A stretch of 64,000 nucleotides of DNA, from the sequence record OQ718158.1. One strand, written 5' to 3'. Shown here in pieces: positions 3,850 through 62,883 of this stretch; position 1 is the first letter of the stretch; every line of letters begins with the position of its first letter. Position numbers and translations under genes: made by a program. The DNA comes from Escherichia phage vB_Ec-M-J. The notes beneath the pieces are model-generated. The model worked only from the letters and a program-made list of their open reading frames with translations. It was not told where the DNA came from and searched no databases.

Positions 3850-3857
3850 TATAAATA
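3850..3857 (+). promoter_or_regulatory. T4-type late-promoter-like box TATAAATA
   Basis: Exact TATAAATA about 40 nt upstream of the 798-aa ORF start; no -35 element. Confidence 0.4.
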
Positions 3858-3895
3858 ATCTATAGATAATGGTAGCTTGGCTATGGAGAATTATA

Positions 3896-6293: not shown

Positions 6294-6605
6294 ATGTTCA
6301 ATCCATTTTTTGATCCATCAACCATGACCGAGAAAGAGTTACAATTGAAAATTAACGAACAATCGATGCGTATTACGTCTGCTCGTGCAGCAGGTATGAG
6401 TGATATGATTGTTGGTAACATGCAAACCGTTCTGAATCAGTGCTATGCTGAATTAGAGATTCGTCAGGGACAAAAAGAAAAAACCTCCTATGATGAGCAA
6501 GACCCATGTATATTTGACATGAACTCTTACTTAACGGATAACGAAGAGGATCAGAAGAAGAAAAATGAAAGTACAAGGAAACAGATTTATAAGTCCCAAT
6601 GGTGA
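6294..6605 (+). CDS. hypothetical protein (103 aa)
   Basis: ATG preceded by aggagga; starts 2 nt after upstream stop. Confidence 0.6.
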   Translation: MFNPFFDPSTMTEKELQLKINEQSMRITSARAAGMSDMIVGNMQTVLNQCYAELEIRQGQKEKTSYDEQDPCIFDMNSYLTDNEEDQKKKNESTRKQIYKSQW

Positions 6606-7083
6606 TGTAAAATGTAACCTTAATGCAGTCGTGTATGCAATCAACTGTGGTGCAGATATTCAGTACTTACAGCTACAGGAGATTGACGAACCGGAACGAT
6701 TGAAATTTAACGATAATTGTAAAAAATTTGGTTTAGAACAGCGTATGCTGGATTATACAATAGAACATGATAAAAACCATGAGCTATGGCGTTATGATCC
6801 AGTGTACGATAACATCAACTTGCGTGAGTACTTTTTACAGAAATGTACATCGGATGAAGCCCGTGAACGTGTAATGTATGAGATTGATTTGTTTGAACAT
6901 TACAACATGACTAAGCTTTTAAGATGTATGATCTGGTTAGTTGATTATATGGAAGAGCACAATATTTTTTGGGGTCTTGGGCGTGGTAGTTCAGTGGCTT
7001 CGTATTGTTTGTTCCTGATTGATTTGCATATGGTTGATTCTTTGAAGTATAAACTAGATGTAAATGAATTTTTGAAATGGTAG
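6565..7083 (+). CDS. hypothetical protein (172 aa) with a C-terminal GRGSSVAS...IDL...EFL segment reminiscent of a Pol III alpha (DnaE) motif
   Basis: ORF overlaps upstream gene by 41 nt; motif resemblance is by eye only. Confidence 0.5.
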   Translation: MKVQGNRFISPNGDVKCNLNAVVYAINCGADIQYLQLQEIDEPERLKFNDNCKKFGLEQRMLDYTIEHDKNHELWRYDPVYDNINLREYFLQKCTSDEARERVMYEIDLFEHYNMTKLLRCMIWLVDYMEEHNIFWGLGRGSSVASYCLFLIDLHMVDSLKYKLDVNEFLKW

Positions 7084-7494: not shown

Positions 7495-7821
7495 ATGACC
7501 AATAAAGTAATGACAGCTTGTAAAGGTAAAGTTATTGTAACTGAACTAGAACATGGTGAGCGTAAAACCGCAGGTGGTATTGTACTTACAAGTGATGATG
7601 GTAAGATTCGTGGTATTCGTTGTCGTTGGGCTAAAGTATATTCTGTTGGTGAAGACATTACCGATATCAAAGAAGGACAATGGATTCTAATTGACCACGG
7701 TCGTTGGTCGAGAACTATTGAGATTGATGGTATTAAAATGAATCTCGTGGATTATCCAGCAGCAGTAAGTTTGGTATCTGACACTGATCCACGCATCTCT
7801 GCTCAAACATTTGGTCGTTAA
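7495..7821 (+). CDS. 31: GroES-like co-chaperonin (T4 gp31-like), 108 aa
   Basis: KVIVTELEHGERKTAGGIVLT matches GroES mobile-loop region; size and position consistent with gp31; SD caggag. Confidence 0.8.
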   Translation: MTNKVMTACKGKVIVTELEHGERKTAGGIVLTSDDGKIRGIRCRWAKVYSVGEDITDIKEGQWILIDHGRWSRTIEIDGIKMNLVDYPAAVSLVSDTDPRISAQTFGR

Positions 7822-7877
7822 AACATAAATCTAAAGCTCGGATATATTATCTGGGCTTTTTATTTGGATGAAAATAC

Positions 7878-8147
7878 ATGATAACTGATGATGGAAAATA
7901 TAGTTTTTCTGACGTTACGTTAGTTTCTAAAAATGGACGATTTATGTTTGAAGATAGAACTAACACGAAGTACGTATATGAAGTTTCTCATGATATGTTT
8001 AAGTACTTACTTATCGTATCAGCCCAGGCCGAAGCAATGGGTGTGAAGAACAAAGCAAACTCATTTAATTTTTTGTTTAATCAACTTGAAATGACAGAAG
8101 ACTTATTCACTGCATTGTTGTATGATTATGCAGATTGGATTTCATAA
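7878..8147 (+). CDS. hypothetical protein (89 aa)
   Basis: ORF in tight array; no motif. Confidence 0.6.
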   Translation: MITDDGKYSFSDVTLVSKNGRFMFEDRTNTKYVYEVSHDMFKYLLIVSAQAEAMGVKNKANSFNFLFNQLEMTEDLFTALLYDYADWIS

Positions 8148-8173
8148 ACACCTAATATACAAGGAAATAAAAC

Positions 8174-9127
8174 ATGACTACATTATGGACTGAAAAATAC
8201 CGCCCACAAACTATGGAAGATTATGTATCGAAGAACGAAGCCCTACGTCAGAAGATGGAAGAATGGATTCGTACTGGTGATATCCCACATATTGGATTTT
8301 TTGGACCAGCAGGGACAGGTAAAACTTCAGCAATCAAAGTACTACTGAATGGTCTGGAAGCTAACGGACACCTTGACCCTAGTGATGTAACAACACTGAA
8401 TATGTCAGATGAAGGTATCGATGCTGTTCGTGACAAAATTGATGCAGCAGCAAAACTATCATGTTTTGGTCGTTATCGTGTATTTGTTCTGGAAGAAATG
8501 GAACAAATGAACCACAAAGCACAGGGTAGCTTGAAACGTGTCATGGAAGATTACCATGAAAATGCTCGTTTCATTCTTACCAGTAATGAACCACATAAGA
8601 TTCAGAAACCTATTATCTCTCGTGTCCAGGTCATCACCATTGAGAAGCATGATATGGAACAATTCATGTCACGCATCTACAACGTACTATTGGCAGAAGG
8701 AGTAGATCTAAGCACTGATGAAAGTATTGAACAAGTACAAAAATACATCAATGCTTCATATCCTGATTTCCGCAAAACGCTAAACGTATTGCAAAGTTCA
8801 GTAGTCGATGGTAAACTTGTAAAACTTGAAGACAGTATTGAGAACTCTGCTGGGTATCGTACTGCCATTGTTGATGCACTAAAAGCTGGTAACATTCGTC
8901 AAATGCGTGAGCAGATCGTGCAAAACATTCCTGATGATGAGATGGATGCATTCTTCTCTTATCTGTATCGTAATGCAGAAATGTTCAGTACTGATGAAAT
9001 TACTCTAATGAAAATTAAGGTTAAGATTCGTGACGCTGTTGTTAAACAAGCTACCGTGTCTGACCGTGAAATGAATCTCAGTGCATTACTGTGTGAGATT
9101 GACCTAATCTGTTCGGGGAACATGTAA
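8174..9127 (+). CDS. 44: sliding-clamp loader large subunit (AAA+ RFC-like), T4 gp44 homologue, 317 aa
   Basis: EKYRPQTMEDYV N-terminus, Walker A GPAGTGKTS, Walker B FVLEEME, SRVQVITI and YPDFRKTLNVLQ match gp44 signature blocks. Confidence 0.9.
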   Translation: MTTLWTEKYRPQTMEDYVSKNEALRQKMEEWIRTGDIPHIGFFGPAGTGKTSAIKVLLNGLEANGHLDPSDVTTLNMSDEGIDAVRDKIDAAAKLSCFGRYRVFVLEEMEQMNHKAQGSLKRVMEDYHENARFILTSNEPHKIQKPIISRVQVITIEKHDMEQFMSRIYNVLLAEGVDLSTDESIEQVQKYINASYPDFRKTLNVLQSSVVDGKLVKLEDSIENSAGYRTAIVDALKAGNIRQMREQIVQNIPDDEMDAFFSYLYRNAEMFSTDEITLMKIKVKIRDAVVKQATVSDREMNLSALLCEIDLICSGNM

Positions 9128-9753
9128 TGAAAGACCGTTGTATTGTATTCGACTGTGATGAAGTACTACTAGATCACATTGGTTCATTAGGAGAATACGC
9201 AAAACTCCAATATGATATCAACCCAACAACACCATACCCACTCGCATACGATTTATCCGAATGGTTTGGTGTTTCACGAGAAAAAGTTCAAGAGATCATT
9301 ACTGAATTCAATCAACGTTCGTATATGTTTGGATTACTAAAACCTGTAGAAACTAACACTGTAAGTATTATGCATGAACTGCGTGATCGTTTTTACAAGG
9401 AAAAATTCATAGTACTGACTAAGTGTGGTAAGAAAGGTTATAGCGAGGTACTTCGCAATACTAATCTTATGCATGTATTTGGTGAGACATGTTTTGATGA
9501 AATCATCATTGTTGAAATGAATGAATCTAAGCATGAAGCACTAGTAGAATTAAAAGAACGATATGACGTAAAACTGATGATTGATGATTATATCAATAAT
9601 ATTGAAACATCAATGGAATTGGGTATCCCATCAGTTATGATGCGAGCGTCCCACAATCATATGTATAAAAATGGTTATGGGTATGACTATGTTAACAACT
9701 GGGATGAACTACGTTTAAAAATCTATTCAGTACTGTCGAAATATTACCAATAA
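9127..9753 (+). CDS. HAD-superfamily hydrolase, possible 5'(3')-nucleotidase/phosphatase (208 aa)
   Basis: Motif I VFDCDEVLLD (DxDxV), IVLTK, motif IV KLMIDDYINN; ATGA overlap with gp44 stop. Confidence 0.6.
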   Translation: MKDRCIVFDCDEVLLDHIGSLGEYAKLQYDINPTTPYPLAYDLSEWFGVSREKVQEIITEFNQRSYMFGLLKPVETNTVSIMHELRDRFYKEKFIVLTKCGKKGYSEVLRNTNLMHVFGETCFDEIIIVEMNESKHEALVELKERYDVKLMIDDYINNIETSMELGIPSVMMRASHNHMYKNGYGYDYVNNWDELRLKIYSVLSKYYQ

Positions 9754-9768
9754 TATAGTAAAAACAAT

Positions 9769-9791
9769 GGGGATTATTTAATCCCCTTTTA
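9769..9791 (+). terminator. Rho-independent terminator
   Basis: ggggat...atcccc hairpin followed by tttt. Confidence 0.7.
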
Positions 9792-9852
9792 TTGTTTTTT
9801 AAAAGTAGTAAATAGTATTATATGTGCTAGTTTTTTAAGGATAATATAAAAC

Positions 9853-10419
9853 ATGGATGATTTAGATTATACAGATAATGCAGTCCAGCAGTTGTATGAT
9901 AACAGCGGTATGCTAGATATACTTCTGGCTGTTGAAAAATATTTTGATGATAATGATTTGTACGCATATCATGGTATCATCGAAGGTGAACTCGTTGAAG
10001 GTCCGATTGTTAGTAAGTACTGGTGTACTGTGACATTCAAATACTATCGTGAGAATTTCCCTGATCCTACTGCATTCTCAATTCTTGAGAAGCACGGGAC
10101 TAAGGTATATGTGAAAGCAGATTATGAAATTACACCTATTCAAGAACCTAACCGTCAGGCTGATATGAAGAGTGTTGCAACGCAATCTGGTTCTGTTCGT
10201 ATTCCGAAAAATGAACGAATTCCAGTTCTATTGGTTCGTGTACAAATTCCTAGAAACCTAATCAACCCTGAAAGTTTTGATGAATACAAACTAATGGCTT
10301 CCGAGTTCAATAGTAATCCTATGAATGCACAAGAACCATCAGATGAACCAATTACTGGTGAAGATGTTGATTTAGATGTAGAAGTATCTGATGATGTACA
10401 ACAAGGTGGTATGCAATGA
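9853..10419 (+). CDS. hypothetical protein with acidic C-terminus (188 aa)
   Basis: ORF; C-terminal EPSDEPITGEDVDLDVEVSDD. Confidence 0.7.
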   Translation: MDDLDYTDNAVQQLYDNSGMLDILLAVEKYFDDNDLYAYHGIIEGELVEGPIVSKYWCTVTFKYYRENFPDPTAFSILEKHGTKVYVKADYEITPIQEPNRQADMKSVATQSGSVRIPKNERIPVLLVRVQIPRNLINPESFDEYKLMASEFNSNPMNAQEPSDEPITGEDVDLDVEVSDDVQQGGMQ

Positions 10420-11096
10420 AAAAGAAACTAAATGAACAAGGTTTACGTCCACAAGTACTAAAGGATTTGATTCATCCTATTATTAGTGTAGATGAATATA
10501 CTCCTAAGATTGAAGATAGTAATATCGTTGTTATGTTTCAAGTACTAAACAACTTTGATGCTGCATATGACCTGTCATCTTTTATTGAGAAGTCACCAAT
10601 TGATGCAGTTGATACGGAAGCTGCTGAAACACCTAATCTGGATGGTCGTTATCAGGTATTCGTTGAAATGGAACGTGATGCGGAATTTCCAGAAAACCTA
10701 CTTCGTCTTATCAAAACTATTGAAAACATTTGCCCAAATCCTGGCTGGAAGATTCAGCTTTATGGTGTGAATGATCCGATTGATGTTGATTTTGATGAAA
10801 TTCAACAACGTATCGATTTGGGTATTCCTAAATCCATCAGTGAATTTTTAGACTTTGCTGGTGTATCTGTTGTTAAAGAAGGTCACATGCTTGCATTAAA
10901 CACTGCATATGGTAAACTACATTACAGTACTGGTAGTGGCTTTGTGTCAGAAGCATACGTAAAACAGCTTCTATCGAACGATACGCAGGTAGATACATCT
11001 CGTTTAAGTTCGGTACTAGGTGAAAGTTATAGCGTCCTACGAAGCGGCAATCAGTATGTAGTAGGCAAAGATGGGAAGTATTTGGTGTTACGATGA
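10416..11096 (+). CDS. hypothetical protein (226 aa)
   Basis: ATGA-coupled ORF; size similar to a sliding clamp but no convincing similarity seen by eye. Confidence 0.7.
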   Translation: MKKKLNEQGLRPQVLKDLIHPIISVDEYTPKIEDSNIVVMFQVLNNFDAAYDLSSFIEKSPIDAVDTEAAETPNLDGRYQVFVEMERDAEFPENLLRLIKTIENICPNPGWKIQLYGVNDPIDVDFDEIQQRIDLGIPKSISEFLDFAGVSVVKEGHMLALNTAYGKLHYSTGSGFVSEAYVKQLLSNDTQVDTSRLSSVLGESYSVLRSGNQYVVGKDGKYLVLR

Positions 11097-11911
11097 GAAT
11101 TTTAAACATGCTTAAATCTCTCCATGAGACTACCAAACTTCACCAAGACGACAAGTATCATCGTAGTACAACTAAAGATTTGGCATGTAGGATGTATATG
11201 AGACGATTCGAAATTTCTCGAATCGGTAAAGGATGGGACGATATCAAACGTGAAGATATCGACCCTGATGCGGTATTCAAAGCATACATGGCACGAAAAG
11301 TTTTTATCAATGAGAAAACTTTTTATATTGACAGCGATAAAGAACTTGAAGTAAAATTTACGAAAGGCTTGTGGAAGATTTGGTGCTTAGAGACGTTCGG
11401 TGAAGTTTTACCAGAGCCACCAGTACCAGAAACTTACAAAGATCTAAAAGCTATATTTGACAATGAACATATACATACAAATTACTCACTATATGAAACT
11501 GTTTCCGAAGCGGTATTTTATGGAGAGTTGAACGGTCATAACAAGTACTTTGATAGTATGGTGAGTTTTGATTTATTCTGTCATCTCCCTGGTATCTCTA
11601 GTTGGACATGTGACCAGCATCGAGCTAGTAAGGTAGACAAGCGTAAGTTCTCTGCTCAACGCTTTATGCAAGCTGCTATGGGTATGTACAAATTGGATTA
11701 TCTTGGGTGTCCAGAACCATATAAACATTTTTGGAAAGAACGTGCACAAAAGTGCATGAACTATTGTATAATTCGTTTAATGGATTCATACATTTTAAAA
11801 TTCAGAAATGCAACTGTGTATGATATGCCGGAACCACCAAAGAATGAAAAGTACCCACCAGTAAAAACATTTGTGTGGTACAAGGACAAGAGTAACAAAA
11901 GGATGCACTAA
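11093..11911 (+). CDS. hypothetical protein (272 aa)
   Basis: ATGA-coupled ORF; no motif recognised. Confidence 0.7.
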   Translation: MRILNMLKSLHETTKLHQDDKYHRSTTKDLACRMYMRRFEISRIGKGWDDIKREDIDPDAVFKAYMARKVFINEKTFYIDSDKELEVKFTKGLWKIWCLETFGEVLPEPPVPETYKDLKAIFDNEHIHTNYSLYETVSEAVFYGELNGHNKYFDSMVSFDLFCHLPGISSWTCDQHRASKVDKRKFSAQRFMQAAMGMYKLDYLGCPEPYKHFWKERAQKCMNYCIIRLMDSYILKFRNATVYDMPEPPKNEKYPPVKTFVWYKDKSNKRMH

Positions 11912-11927
11912 GGTGCGTCCTTTTTTT
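11901..11927 (+). terminator. Rho-independent terminator
   Basis: gatgcac/gtgcgtc stem overlapping stop codon, then T7. Confidence 0.6.
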
Positions 11928-11941
11928 CTTTAAAAAATGGT

Positions 11942-11970
11942 TTGACAAATACATCGTGTGTATGTAGAAT
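11942..11970 (+). promoter_or_regulatory. sigma70-type promoter (TTGACA-17-TAGAAT)
   Basis: -35 TTGACA 11942-11947, -10 TAGAAT 11965-11970, upstream of gene at 12011. Confidence 0.6.
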
Positions 11971-12010: not shown

Positions 12011-13138
12011 ATGAAAGGAAAATATTTTTTCATTGACAACGGAAAAGAAGTTGAAATCAAAGAATTTAACTTCAACTACGTTCTTAACTCACTGTTAAAA
12101 CAGTATGATCGTTCATCGAATCGAAAATATATGTATACCATTGTTGTGGACAGAACATACGATTCATTGGGAAATCCACATTTCGACACCCGTTCACTTT
12201 CACTCGACGAGATCTATTTTGATAATCGCCGTTTGAAGGTAATGGATTTGATGAAAGATAAAATTCATTTCTCAAATGTGAGAATCGTTCCAGATCTCCC
12301 AATTCCTCCGTTAGAGAAGGAGTACCGAGACTGGAAGGAAGGCAAACTTCGTCCAAACATGGCAGCAGTAGCTACTTCACCAGAAGTTCCGGCTCCTATT
12401 GTTCTTAAGAAGAAACCTATCGATCCTGAATGTGATATGGTTGCTGACATTGAACGTTGGATGGAATTCCCAGATACAATTAAAAAAGATTCAGTAAAAG
12501 TACTGGATTGGTATGTTAACCTCCCAGTATGTGCACAAGAAGTTGGTATGAAGATTCAGAAGATCTCTGAGCGACAATTGGATTTGAACGCAGCACTACA
12601 ACAACACAGTGATTATATCCGTTTATTAATGGGTAACCTTACAACAGCACTGGAAAAGTTATTCCCGTTGAAGCCTACCTTTGCACAGAAGTTGTTTGGG
12701 AAAGCAGATATCAAAGTTCAACCATCTGATTTACCAAAAGTAATGAAAGCATTGAATGAGGCCGTGAAGTACGATACTAACAAGTTTAGTGGTATTACGT
12801 CTTTATTCACTGAAATTCGTGAGGAAGTTCGTGAAATCAAAAATGAACTTGAGTATGGTAAGATTGGGTGTGAATATGCAATTCGTCGTTTGGAAGATCC
12901 ATTTGAATATGAACTAACGCTTGAACGTATTATGAAAATGGGTATTTCAACAGCAATGACTGAAACTAGTATTGTTGGTGTTAGTAAGCAGTATCAGATT
13001 GATATGAGCCGAATGATTGATATTCAAACTATCACTATCCCATTGATTATAGGTCGTTTACAAGCTCAAACTGGTAAAGCAGTCGATGAAGATACTGCCA
13101 ATATCATTCGCAACCTAGCGTATGGAAATAAAGAGTAA
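12011..13138 (+). CDS. hypothetical protein (375 aa)
   Basis: ATG with gaggttagta SD downstream of strong promoter. Confidence 0.75.
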   Translation: MKGKYFFIDNGKEVEIKEFNFNYVLNSLLKQYDRSSNRKYMYTIVVDRTYDSLGNPHFDTRSLSLDEIYFDNRRLKVMDLMKDKIHFSNVRIVPDLPIPPLEKEYRDWKEGKLRPNMAAVATSPEVPAPIVLKKKPIDPECDMVADIERWMEFPDTIKKDSVKVLDWYVNLPVCAQEVGMKIQKISERQLDLNAALQQHSDYIRLLMGNLTTALEKLFPLKPTFAQKLFGKADIKVQPSDLPKVMKALNEAVKYDTNKFSGITSLFTEIREEVREIKNELEYGKIGCEYAIRRLEDPFEYELTLERIMKMGISTAMTETSIVGVSKQYQIDMSRMIDIQTITIPLIIGRLQAQTGKAVDEDTANIIRNLAYGNKE

Positions 13139-13145
13139 AAAGTAG

Positions 13146-13174
13146 TTGACAGTACTGAGTGTTGCCTGTAGAAT
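13146..13174 (+). promoter_or_regulatory. sigma70-type promoter (TTGACA-17-TAGAAT)
   Basis: -35 13146-13151, -10 13169-13174; -10 flanked by inverted repeat gtgttgc/gcaacac. Confidence 0.6.
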
Positions 13175-13220
13175 GTTTATCACTGAGCAACACTATCTTA
13201 AATTAACTGAGGAATACACA

Positions 13221-14363
13221 ATGTCCGAGAAAGAAATCAATCCGAAAAAAGCAACAGTTAAACAAGCCAAAGCAACCAAAACTGCCAAACGTACTACCAA
13301 AACAGCAGCACACACAATTGACGCAACTGATATCTTCGAACAACAGTCCAAGTCACTTCCAGTACTGAAAGATACTAAAGGCAACAGTATGGCTTTAACT
13401 GTGCAGAATATTAATACCATCGGAACCACTGCTGGGGCAGGTGTAGGACGTTTGGCTGATGAAATCATGTCAAAAGTTAACGTCACTGATGATAATACCG
13501 AATTCGGTAAGTCTATTACTACTATCTTGACATTGACTCGTGCAGTTGATATTGATAGTCTACAGGATGATAAATCAATCGTAGGCTGGGTCAAAAAACT
13601 TTTTGTTAATGCTAAACAGAAAGTTGGCGATCAGTACAAAAACAGTAAAGAACAAATTGATGAAATCATGAACACTCTTCAGGTTGGTATTAACCGCCAG
13701 CATGGGGAATGTGCATGGCTAGACACTGCTTACAACGAAAACAAAAACTATCTCTTTGAACTGCGTGATACGTTAGTTGAGTTGGAAGAAGTTACCAAAG
13801 CACAAGATGCTGAATTGGTAGCAATGCAAGCGAACCCTGACGTTGATTCTTTTGCAATCCAGGAGCAAAAGATGATTTGTGAAGCTCTTTCTAAACAGGA
13901 AGATAAGATTCGTCGTCTTATCATGATGTGTGAACTGAGCGGTCCTCGCCTGATGAGTATGAAGAAAGTAAACCTCAACACTGTTTCTAAGTTTGAGGAT
14001 TTGAAATCAGTTGTTATTCCAGCATGGAAATCACAATTGGCTGAACAGTTGATTTCCGAACGTCAACGTAAAGACAATGAGTTGGGTAATCTGATTGACA
14101 ATGAAACTAACCGTTTACTCGAAGTAAACTCTAAAATGGTAGCAACTAACATGTTGGATGCTGCTAAGGCAAATAATCGTGGTATCGTGGATATTAAAAC
14201 ATTGCGTAATGTACACAAAACAATGATCGATAGCATCGAAGCAGTACTGATTGAAGAGAAGAAAGGTAAAGAAGAGCGTGAGCGAGCTAAGATTGAAATC
14301 GCAAAACTCTCTCATGAACTTGAAGATACTCTTCGTGAAATTGCTGAAAAAGCTAACAAGTAA
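13221..14363 (+). CDS. hypothetical Lys/Thr-rich N-terminus, coiled-coil-like protein (380 aa)
   Basis: ORF-track start (TTG 13146) lies in the promoter; first ATG with SD gaggaa is 13221. Confidence 0.75.
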   Translation: MSEKEINPKKATVKQAKATKTAKRTTKTAAHTIDATDIFEQQSKSLPVLKDTKGNSMALTVQNINTIGTTAGAGVGRLADEIMSKVNVTDDNTEFGKSITTILTLTRAVDIDSLQDDKSIVGWVKKLFVNAKQKVGDQYKNSKEQIDEIMNTLQVGINRQHGECAWLDTAYNENKNYLFELRDTLVELEEVTKAQDAELVAMQANPDVDSFAIQEQKMICEALSKQEDKIRRLIMMCELSGPRLMSMKKVNLNTVSKFEDLKSVVIPAWKSQLAEQLISERQRKDNELGNLIDNETNRLLEVNSKMVATNMLDAAKANNRGIVDIKTLRNVHKTMIDSIEAVLIEEKKGKEERERAKIEIAKLSHELEDTLREIAEKANK

Positions 14364-14445: not shown

Positions 14446-15135
14446 ATGAAACGTCGTCATGTTAGTGTTGATATTGAATCTCTCGGTACTCCTGAAAACT
14501 CTGGCTATGATATTATTATTCCAAATTATGCAGCAGTAGTTGTTCCAAGTAAACCTGAACATGATATCAGACAATTTGTATATGTTAAGTTACCATACCA
14601 AGCACAAGTCAACGCTGGGCTGAAATCAGATGCAGGTGCAATGGATTTCTGGATGAATACATGTCAGAAGGAATATCCTAATGCATATGCTGAAGTTGCC
14701 AGTACTATGGCACTTGTTGCACCAGAATTGTACGGTCCTAATGGTAAATCCAAACAAATCTTTACTTCTAATGGTATTGTCGATTTCTGGAAAGATATCC
14801 GTTTTGATTGTTATGGTAAAGAGGTTGAGCATTCAATTTGGGGAAATGGCTGCAACTTCGACTGTAGTATTTTACAAGCTAATCACTTAAAACTATTGAA
14901 TGTTGGTGATTTGTGGAAATATGATGCTCCTGAAAACGCACGAACCCTGAAGCGTTTATTGAATGAAGAAGCTCGTACTGAAATGGATGAGATTGTGTCA
15001 GTGCAGTTAGCTAAATTCGTGAAGTATGCAGAAAAATGTGGTATTAATGGTTTGGAATTACATCACCCTCTGTATGATGCAGCACGTGAAGCTATCCAAA
15101 TCTCCTATTGTCTCAATAAACTTAAACTGGACTAA
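14446..15135 (+). CDS. dexA: DEDDh-family 3'-5' exonuclease (DnaQ-like), T4 DexA-like, 229 aa
   Basis: Exo I VSVDIESLGT, Exo II NGCNFDCSIL, Exo III HHPLYDAAREA (H-x4-D). Confidence 0.75.
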   Translation: MKRRHVSVDIESLGTPENSGYDIIIPNYAAVVVPSKPEHDIRQFVYVKLPYQAQVNAGLKSDAGAMDFWMNTCQKEYPNAYAEVASTMALVAPELYGPNGKSKQIFTSNGIVDFWKDIRFDCYGKEVEHSIWGNGCNFDCSILQANHLKLLNVGDLWKYDAPENARTLKRLLNEEARTEMDEIVSVQLAKFVKYAEKCGINGLELHHPLYDAAREAIQISYCLNKLKLD

Positions 15136-62772: not shown

Positions 62773-62883
62773 TTTGACTTTGGAACAACCATTTCATATG
62801 TGATATAATCTTAAGTGTCTGTTGAAATAAACAGCACATGAAGTATAAATATTAAAGTAATTTATCTCTTTAAGGAGTATGAA

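Follow-up and report, generated by a model that had tools for sequence, protein, structure and literature searches.

Phage T4 encodes its sliding clamp and clamp loader in adjacent genes, in the order 45-44-62, which we confirmed. The T4 loader is a complex of four gp44 subunits and one gp62 subunit, and the clamp is a trimer of gp45. The locus studied here lies in a stretch of 64,000 nucleotides of Escherichia phage vB_Ec-M-J (OQ718158.1; the window, to which positions refer) and contains a gene for a gp44-like ATPase (8174-9127, 317 aa). The initial annotation of the window stated correctly that gene 62 follows gene 44 in T4, and pointed out that the gp44-like gene is followed here by an open reading frame (ORF) with the motifs of a HAD-superfamily hydrolase (9127-9753, 208 aa) and then by two ORFs (9853-10419, 188 aa; 10416-11096, 226 aa) without evident similarity to either partner; the coordinates of these ORFs are exactly as it gave them. 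Where, then, are the partners of the gp44-like protein encoded: are they highly diverged, or is the replication module organised differently? The explanation that we favour, at a probability of roughly 0.8, is that the flagged stretch spans two transcription units, unrelated to each other, in a known Asteriusvirus whose replication genes are dispersed and not arranged as in T4, and that the products of ORF 9853 and ORF 10416 reside inside the virion or are bound to it and are not replication accessory proteins. The expectation was taken from T4, whose gene order does not hold for Rak2-like jumbo phages.

Sequence comparison places the source phage in Asteriusvirus (121Q/Ecwhy_1-type), within the 'Rak2-like' group of jumbo myoviruses with genomes of about 350 kb. 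Over the 4 kb around the flagged genes, identity is 99.5% with the Escherichia phages WPEC3, EC.P1, Ecwhy_1 and fEgEco12; with 121Q and PBECO4 it is about 81%. In 121Q the corresponding genes are annotated as clamp loader (gp60, T4 gp44-like), phosphoglycolate phosphatase (gp61), structural proteins (121Q gp62 and gp63) and hypothetical protein (gp64). The gene content of the region is therefore already public and annotated. The departure from the T4 gene order has itself been in print since 2013 and has little discovery value.

The proteins encoded by ORF 9853 (9853..10419, plus strand) and ORF 10416 (10416..11096, plus strand) match over their full length PHROGs that are labelled virion structural protein (phrog_12928, E 1.1e-86, and phrog_13138, E 2.3e-115, respectively), and both families are found only in Rak2-like phages and related jumbo phages. 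Mass spectrometry (MS) of purified CBB virions detected the homologue of ORF 9853, CBB_334, with 7 peptides and 40% coverage, and the PA5oct homologue (0295) is flagged ESI-MS/MS (electrospray ionisation tandem MS). The published virion proteome of phAPEC6 contains gp150c (21.33 kDa, 5 peptides, 34.8%) and gp149c (25.61 kDa, 4 peptides, 29.2%), and the next entries of that list are gp158c (90.3 kDa) and gp159c (topoisomerase). Counting genes in phAPEC6 gives the order of the window, which runs from ORF 9853 through the HAD gene, the loader gene, an 89-aa ORF, a GroES-like gene, a 114-aa ORF, a DNA polymerase III (Pol III) alpha fragment, a 103-aa ORF and an 807-aa ORF to the topoisomerase gene. 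The masses of gp150c and gp149c agree with those of fEgEco12 Gp427 and Gp428 (21.4 and 25.4 kDa). The homologues of the HAD protein and of the loader are absent from the phAPEC6 virion list. The third gene of this cluster (11093..11911, plus strand, 272 aa) matches a PHROG of unknown function (phrog_15954, E 3.9e-153) and gave no match in Pfam or NCBIfam.

The arrangement of transcription signals suggests that ORF 9853 and the genes behind it form a late-type unit apart from the loader/HAD operon. A consensus scan placed an intrinsic-terminator-like hairpin, GGGGATTATTTAATCCCC followed by a T-run, at 9769..9796 (plus strand), where it would end the loader/HAD operon, and 121Q has an equivalent hairpin at the same place. 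Directly after this hairpin stands TAGTAAATAGTATTATAT, which is conserved in 121Q and whose CBB counterpart, in front of the homologous gene, reads TAGTAAATAAGATTATAT. A late-promoter-like element, GTAAATA with an A/T-rich stretch behind it (9808..9823, plus strand), lies here, 39 nt before the start codon of ORF 9853. The authors of the CBB study described a putative late promoter, ATAAATA with an A/T-rich stretch, upstream of structural genes and likened it to the T4 late promoter TATAAATA. The exact T4 sequence does not occur between 6000 and 16500, and the relaxed CBB-type motif is the relevant one instead. The motif [A/G]TAAATA is found 21 times in the window, counting both strands, and it stands 32-39 nt upstream of the start codon in all four (4/4) units of the window that contain virion genes supported by MS. 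These sites and starts are 3851-3858 and 3896 (an annotated start), 9808-9814 and 9853, 45495-45489 and 45457 (minus strand), and 62845-62851 and 62884. By chance a single site would be placed in this way with a probability of about 0.005, a rough figure for a pattern that was noticed post hoc. The second unit (9853-11911) would thus begin after a T4-like late-promoter motif, encode two virion-associated proteins and a third protein, and end at another terminator-like hairpin found by the same scan (11897..11924, plus strand). A scan for sigma-70-type promoters yielded 16 candidates, with 19 expected from shuffled sequences, and was not used to assign a promoter to the loader/HAD operon because it showed no enrichment over the shuffles. 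A near-consensus sigma-70-type promoter (TTGACA, 17 nt spacing, TAGAAT; 11/12 matches) is located at 11942-11970, directly after the 11897 terminator and upstream of an ORF at 12011.

These observations bear on the idea that ORF 9853 and ORF 10416 are extremely diverged orthologues of gp62 and gp45, that is, that the T4 module is intact and has merely received an inserted HAD gene. The lengths of 188 and 226 aa are nearly equal to those of T4 gp62 (187 aa) and gp45 (228 aa), and the pair lies close to the gp44-like gene, a proximity that is kept in PA5oct and Atu_ph07. The virion MS lists also contain the single-stranded DNA-binding protein (SSB). Comparison by hhalign of both families with the single T4 gp62 and gp45 sequences gave probabilities below 1%, an uninformative result given that the same approach is insensitive and failed a control on the published clamp family described below. 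The predicted folds, in contrast, speak against orthology. Both models are of high confidence and show no similarity to clamps or clamp loaders: ORF 9853 is predicted to have N-terminal helices, a beta-sheet core and a disordered acidic C-terminal tail, and ORF 10416 two alpha/beta domains, without the clamp fold of repeated beta-alpha-beta-beta-beta domains. Neither model matches the mainly helical fold of solved or predicted clamp-loader small subunits. Together with the detection of the homologues in virions and the position of both genes in a separate late-type unit behind a terminator, this makes orthology to gp62 and gp45 very improbable. Profile and fold comparison, the former by low-sensitivity hhalign, thus agree with the initial annotation that the two proteins have no recognisable similarity to gp62 or gp45, and its suggestion of highly diverged partners is not supported for these ORFs.

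If ORF 10416 does not encode the clamp, the clamp gene has to be sought elsewhere in the genome. A gp45-type clamp is reported to be encoded next to the gp43-like polymerase. In 121Q the candidate is gp613, a 243-aa ORF just downstream of the polymerase gene (gp610), whose homologues we traced by tblastn. The annotation reads 'sliding clamp protein' in fEgEco12, 'DNA polymerase sliding clamp' in Turkey5 and, in Phosso, a distantly related phage of Sinorhizobium, 'DNA polymerase III sliding clamp beta'; most records, including the RefSeq entry of 121Q, still call the protein hypothetical. Supplementary Table S2 of the fEgEco12 paper (2026) lists for its homologue, Gp359, an HHpred match to 1B77_B (RB69 gp45) with E 1e-31 and probability 100. 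The order of polymerase, one or two small ORFs and clamp candidate is kept in 121Q, fEgEco12, Turkey5 and Phosso. In fEgEco12 coordinates (window position + 255,035) the putative clamp gene lies at 212,969-213,700 and the loader gene at 263,209, which places the clamp about 50 kb upstream of the loader and outside the window. Our own searches with the putative clamp gave no match in Pfam, PHROG or NCBIfam, as was also the case for the distant Phosso homologue, and its profile found nothing at E<=10 among PDB sequences. A Pfam scan of ten unassigned clamp-sized ORFs of the 121Q replication module likewise yielded nothing. With a 97-member gp45 profile, hhalign aligned 176 collinear columns of the putative clamp at P 0.004 and a probability of 8.9%, which is weak. 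This profile and a 48-member gp62 profile had been widened from IMG/VR loci, and only the comparison of gp613 with gp45 improved, to this weak level. With shallow alignments (Neff 2-3) and no secondary structure, hhalign missed the relationship that HHpred gives at E 1e-31; because this control failed, the negative profile-profile results obtained here are not evidence of absence.

The papers on RaK2 (2013) and CBB (2017) reported a homologue of gp44 and none of gp45 or gp62. The putative clamp contradicts the older statement that Rak2-like phages have no gp45 homologue, which is out of date. For gp62 our searches are in line with these papers. Direct searches of the genomes with T4 gp45 and gp62 gave no match, and a jackhmmer profile built from the 48 gp62 members found nothing at E<=1 in any ORF of 121Q, the window or the relatives. 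By hhalign, of limited sensitivity as judged from the control, the probability of a relationship with gp62 was below 1% for the families of the HAD protein, ORF 9853 and ORF 10416 and for three small-ORF families that flank the loader or clamp gene. The complete RefSeq annotation of 121Q contains one loader gene, the gp43-like polymerase gp610 and a gp55-like late sigma factor (gp591), and names no clamp or processivity factor. The phAPEC6 and fEgEco12 papers list only 'a clamp loader', and in the fEgEco12 table the word 'clamp' is used for Gp359 and Gp425 only. A gp62-type subunit is thus not detectable in the genome at the level of sequence. With a reported clamp gene beside the polymerase, about 50 kb upstream, and no detectable gp62-type subunit, the second possibility raised in the initial annotation, a replication module that is organised differently, is supported. 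That no gp62-type subunit has so far been recognised in the clade raises the question how a lone gp44-like ATPase loads the clamp, and also how T4-type late transcription is activated in Rak2-like phages.

The gene behind the loader gene (9127..9753, plus strand) is best named a 5'(3')-deoxyribonucleotidase-like HAD phosphatase of the NT5C type (phrog_420, E 1.8e-38). Motif I is FDCDEV (residues 8-13), in which D9 and D11 are invariant in an alignment of 105 family members. Motif II is represented by T98 in IVLTKCG (family consensus VxTxCG), and K135 of motif III and D154 of motif IV are invariant among the 105 sequences, with D154-D155 lying within MIDDY. The family also has invariant residues of its own, including R110, N113 and N177, and an exhaustive phmmer search recovered 584 representative clusters, mostly of about 200 aa. 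A profile of the family matched the human mitochondrial enzyme mdN (1mh9, E 1.6e-8; positions 6-192 against chain residues 7-192) in the PDB. The matches to 1mh9, 4l6a and the bacterial putative deoxyribonucleotidase 3bwv range from E 1.6e-8 to 1e-7, and the cytosolic enzyme was aligned as well. Pfam NT5C (PF06941) is matched at E<=0.01 by 67 of the 105 family members (best 2.2e-10). The HAD assignment made initially from the DxDxV and DD motifs is borne out by the invariant residues and by the full-length profile match, and instead of pointing to a non-HAD fold the best full-length profile matches are all HAD deoxyribonucleotidases. If the enzyme works like characterised members of the superfamily, catalysis would begin with an attack of Asp9 on the phosphate of a (deoxy)nucleoside monophosphate, which would yield an aspartyl-phosphate intermediate. 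Asp11 would serve as the general acid/base, the phosphate would be held in place by Thr98 and Lys135, and Mg2+ would be coordinated by Asp154/155. The predicted activity is that of a Mg2+-dependent phosphatase of deoxynucleoside monophosphates (dNMPs), with a substrate that we infer from family similarity, and its likely role would be to shape the dNMP pool during phage DNA synthesis.

Database names for this gene conflict, and the name given above is offered as the best-supported one. The homologue is recorded as phosphoglycolate phosphatase in 121Q and Ecwhy_1 and as phosphoserine phosphatase in Turkey3, and there is a weak match to the polynucleotide kinase PHROG phrog_415 (E 0.0018), which would suggest activity on a polynucleotide 3'-phosphate. 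Substrate specificity of HAD enzymes is difficult to predict from sequence, and a substrate of one of these other kinds is conceivable. We nevertheless consider it unlikely: the best full-length profile matches of the family are all 5'(3')-deoxyribonucleotidases (E 1.6e-8 to 1e-4), whereas phosphoglycolate and phosphoserine phosphatases reach E 0.03-0.2 only, in partial alignments. NT5C is the commonest Pfam match among the family members, other records name the homologue 5'-nucleotidase, and polynucleotide kinase is encoded by a gene of its own (121Q gp443).

The HAD gene would be the last gene of a first unit (7878-9753) that lies between the terminator-like hairpins at 7833-7859 and 9769-9786 and encodes an 89-aa protein, the sole gp44/RFC-like ATPase and the NT5C-type phosphatase. 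At its 5' boundary an intrinsic-terminator-like hairpin (7833..7859, plus strand; 12-bp stem and T-run, consensus scan) closes an upstream GroES-like unit. The 89-aa ORF (7878..8147, plus strand) matches a PHROG of unknown function (phrog_16539, E 4.5e-45), has homologues at the same position in relatives (121Q gp59, CBB gp331, K64-1 gp207) and shows no similarity to the gp62 family. The ATPase gene (8174..9127, plus strand) encodes a gp44/RFC-small-subunit-like AAA+ clamp-loader protein (phrog_168, E 1.6e-78) with the motifs WTEKYRP, Walker A GPAGTGKT and the arginine-finger motif SRV. It matches the archaeal RFC small subunit (NCBIfam NF001679) over its full length at E 2.7e-47, and a phmmer search with T4 gp44 found the loader ORF at E 6e-22, with exactly one match per genome searched. 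The loader and HAD genes meet at ACATGTAATGAAA, where the stop codon TAA (9125-9127) and the start codon ATG (9127-9129) share one nucleotide in TAATG. The junction is therefore not the ATGA overlap initially described; ATGA overlaps are found at 10416 and 11093, within the next gene cluster, where they couple ORF 10416 to ORF 9853 and the 272-aa ORF to ORF 10416.

HAD homologues also stand just downstream of the gp44-like gene in K64-1, CBB, PA5oct (0293, E 2e-16) and Atu_ph07 (gp310, E 3e-15). The PA5oct and Atu_ph07 genomes have a small ORF of 104-120 aa (PA5oct 0292, Atu_ph07 gp311) between the loader and HAD genes. These two small ORFs are homologous to each other (E 1e-5), are absent from the window phage and have no similarity to gp62. 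PA5oct 0292 carries a flag for detection by MS in virions. In both phages the ORF 9853/10416 pair has likewise been retained nearby. The adjacency of loader and HAD genes may stem from a coupling of their functions, or it may be no more than part of the collinear core shared by the clade.

Such coupling could mean that the HAD protein or the 89-aa protein is a non-homologous replacement of gp62, a partner of the gp44-like ATPase that completes or regulates the loader pentamer. The three genes lie together in an operon bounded by two terminators, the start codon of the HAD gene overlaps the stop codon of the loader gene, the adjacency extends to PA5oct and Atu_ph07, and no gp62 homologue was found in the genome or is annotated in fEgEco12. 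The HAD protein, however, keeps every catalytic residue and belongs to a family of stand-alone enzymes of about 200 aa (584 clusters), which argues for an enzymatic and not a scaffolding role. The two genes are not immediate neighbours in PA5oct and Atu_ph07, where another ORF intervenes, and the broad collinearity of gene order across these phages makes adjacency alone weak evidence. We consider a replacement of this kind improbable and favour an enzyme co-expressed with replication genes because the active site is intact and the family of stand-alone enzymes is large. In its wider form, the proposal is that the gp44-like ATPase of Rak2-like phages loads the gp45-like clamp without a gp62-type subunit, through an unrecognised partner from its own three-gene operon, for which the conserved 89-aa protein (7878-8147) and the HAD protein would be the candidates. 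This is a long shot; if true, a gp62-free loader with an operon-encoded partner would be a new clamp-loader architecture.

Several points weigh against the reading of two unrelated units with dispersed replication genes. The promoter and terminator calls that separate the units are motif-based. phAPEC6 gp149c and gp150c were mapped to the window ORFs by gene order and mass and not by sequence, and the virion MS lists of these phages include SSB, PhoH and topoisomerase, by which detection is no proof of a structural role; for this reason 'virion-associated' is a safer term than 'structural'. Our own sequence and profile tests of the putative clamp were negative or weak, and the clamp call relies on the published HHpred value. 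For the HAD gene, the 208-aa protein alone scores below the Pfam NT5C gathering cut-off (20.8 vs 24.8 bits, E 3.8e-4) and gave no match in a single-sequence PDB search, for which the family profile was needed; the substrate class consequently rests on profile similarity at the family level. These points are included in the probability given above for two unrelated units.

Some neighbouring genes deserve mention. The match of a 172-aa ORF at 6565-7083 to bacterial DNA polymerase III alpha is confined to the N-terminal NTPase region (Pfam E 5.8e-9), which fits the split 'minimal Pol III alpha' described in the literature for group 2.2 jumbo phages. Two GroES/Cpn10-like genes are present in the genome: one (7495-7821) lies two genes upstream of the clamp loader gene and the other (121Q gp615) two genes downstream of the putative clamp gene. 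The product of the ORF at 13146-14363 resembles TelA (toxic anion resistance; Pfam E 1.8e-37), with a TTG start at 13146 in the ORF list and a later start annotated in relatives. At 14446-15135 an ORF matches the Rv2179c-like 3'-5' exoribonuclease domain (Pfam E 7e-9) and a PHROG exonuclease (E 9e-33), and the label 'metallopeptidase' of its homologue in the GenBank notes of Ecwhy_1 and 121Q is probably a misannotation.

Compared with known systems, the region is closest to the Rak2-like relatives. Orthologues occur in the same order in 121Q (gp59-gp64), Ecwhy_1 (94-100), fEgEco12 (Gp424-429), CBB (gp331-336), K64-1 (gp207-212) and phAPEC6 (gp149c-153c), and members of Asteriusvirus share 81-99.5% DNA identity with it. 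Their records already name the products clamp loader, phosphoglycolate phosphatase or 5'-nucleotidase, and structural protein. There is no material difference from these relatives, apart from the conflicting names of the HAD gene and the fact that fEgEco12 lists Gp426-428 as no more than hypothetical. With the human 5'(3')-deoxyribonucleotidases (mdN 1mh9, cdN 2i7d; PF06941) the HAD protein shares a similar length of about 200 aa, the same HAD motifs I-IV and a collinear full-length profile alignment; it differs from them in its low sequence identity and in the invariant residues of the phage family. The loader ATPase shares the RFC box motifs with the archaeal RFC small subunit (NF001679), below the equivalog cut-off of that model (161 vs 303 bits) and with no large-subunit counterpart identified in the phage. 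In comparison to T4, no gp62 is detectable, the reported clamp gene lies beside the polymerase gene about 50 kb from the loader gene, and a HAD enzyme follows the gp44-like gene. Features in common with T4 are the gp44 homologue, a late sigma factor resembling gp55 and TATAAATA-like motifs, and for this phage species a gp45-like clamp has been reported.

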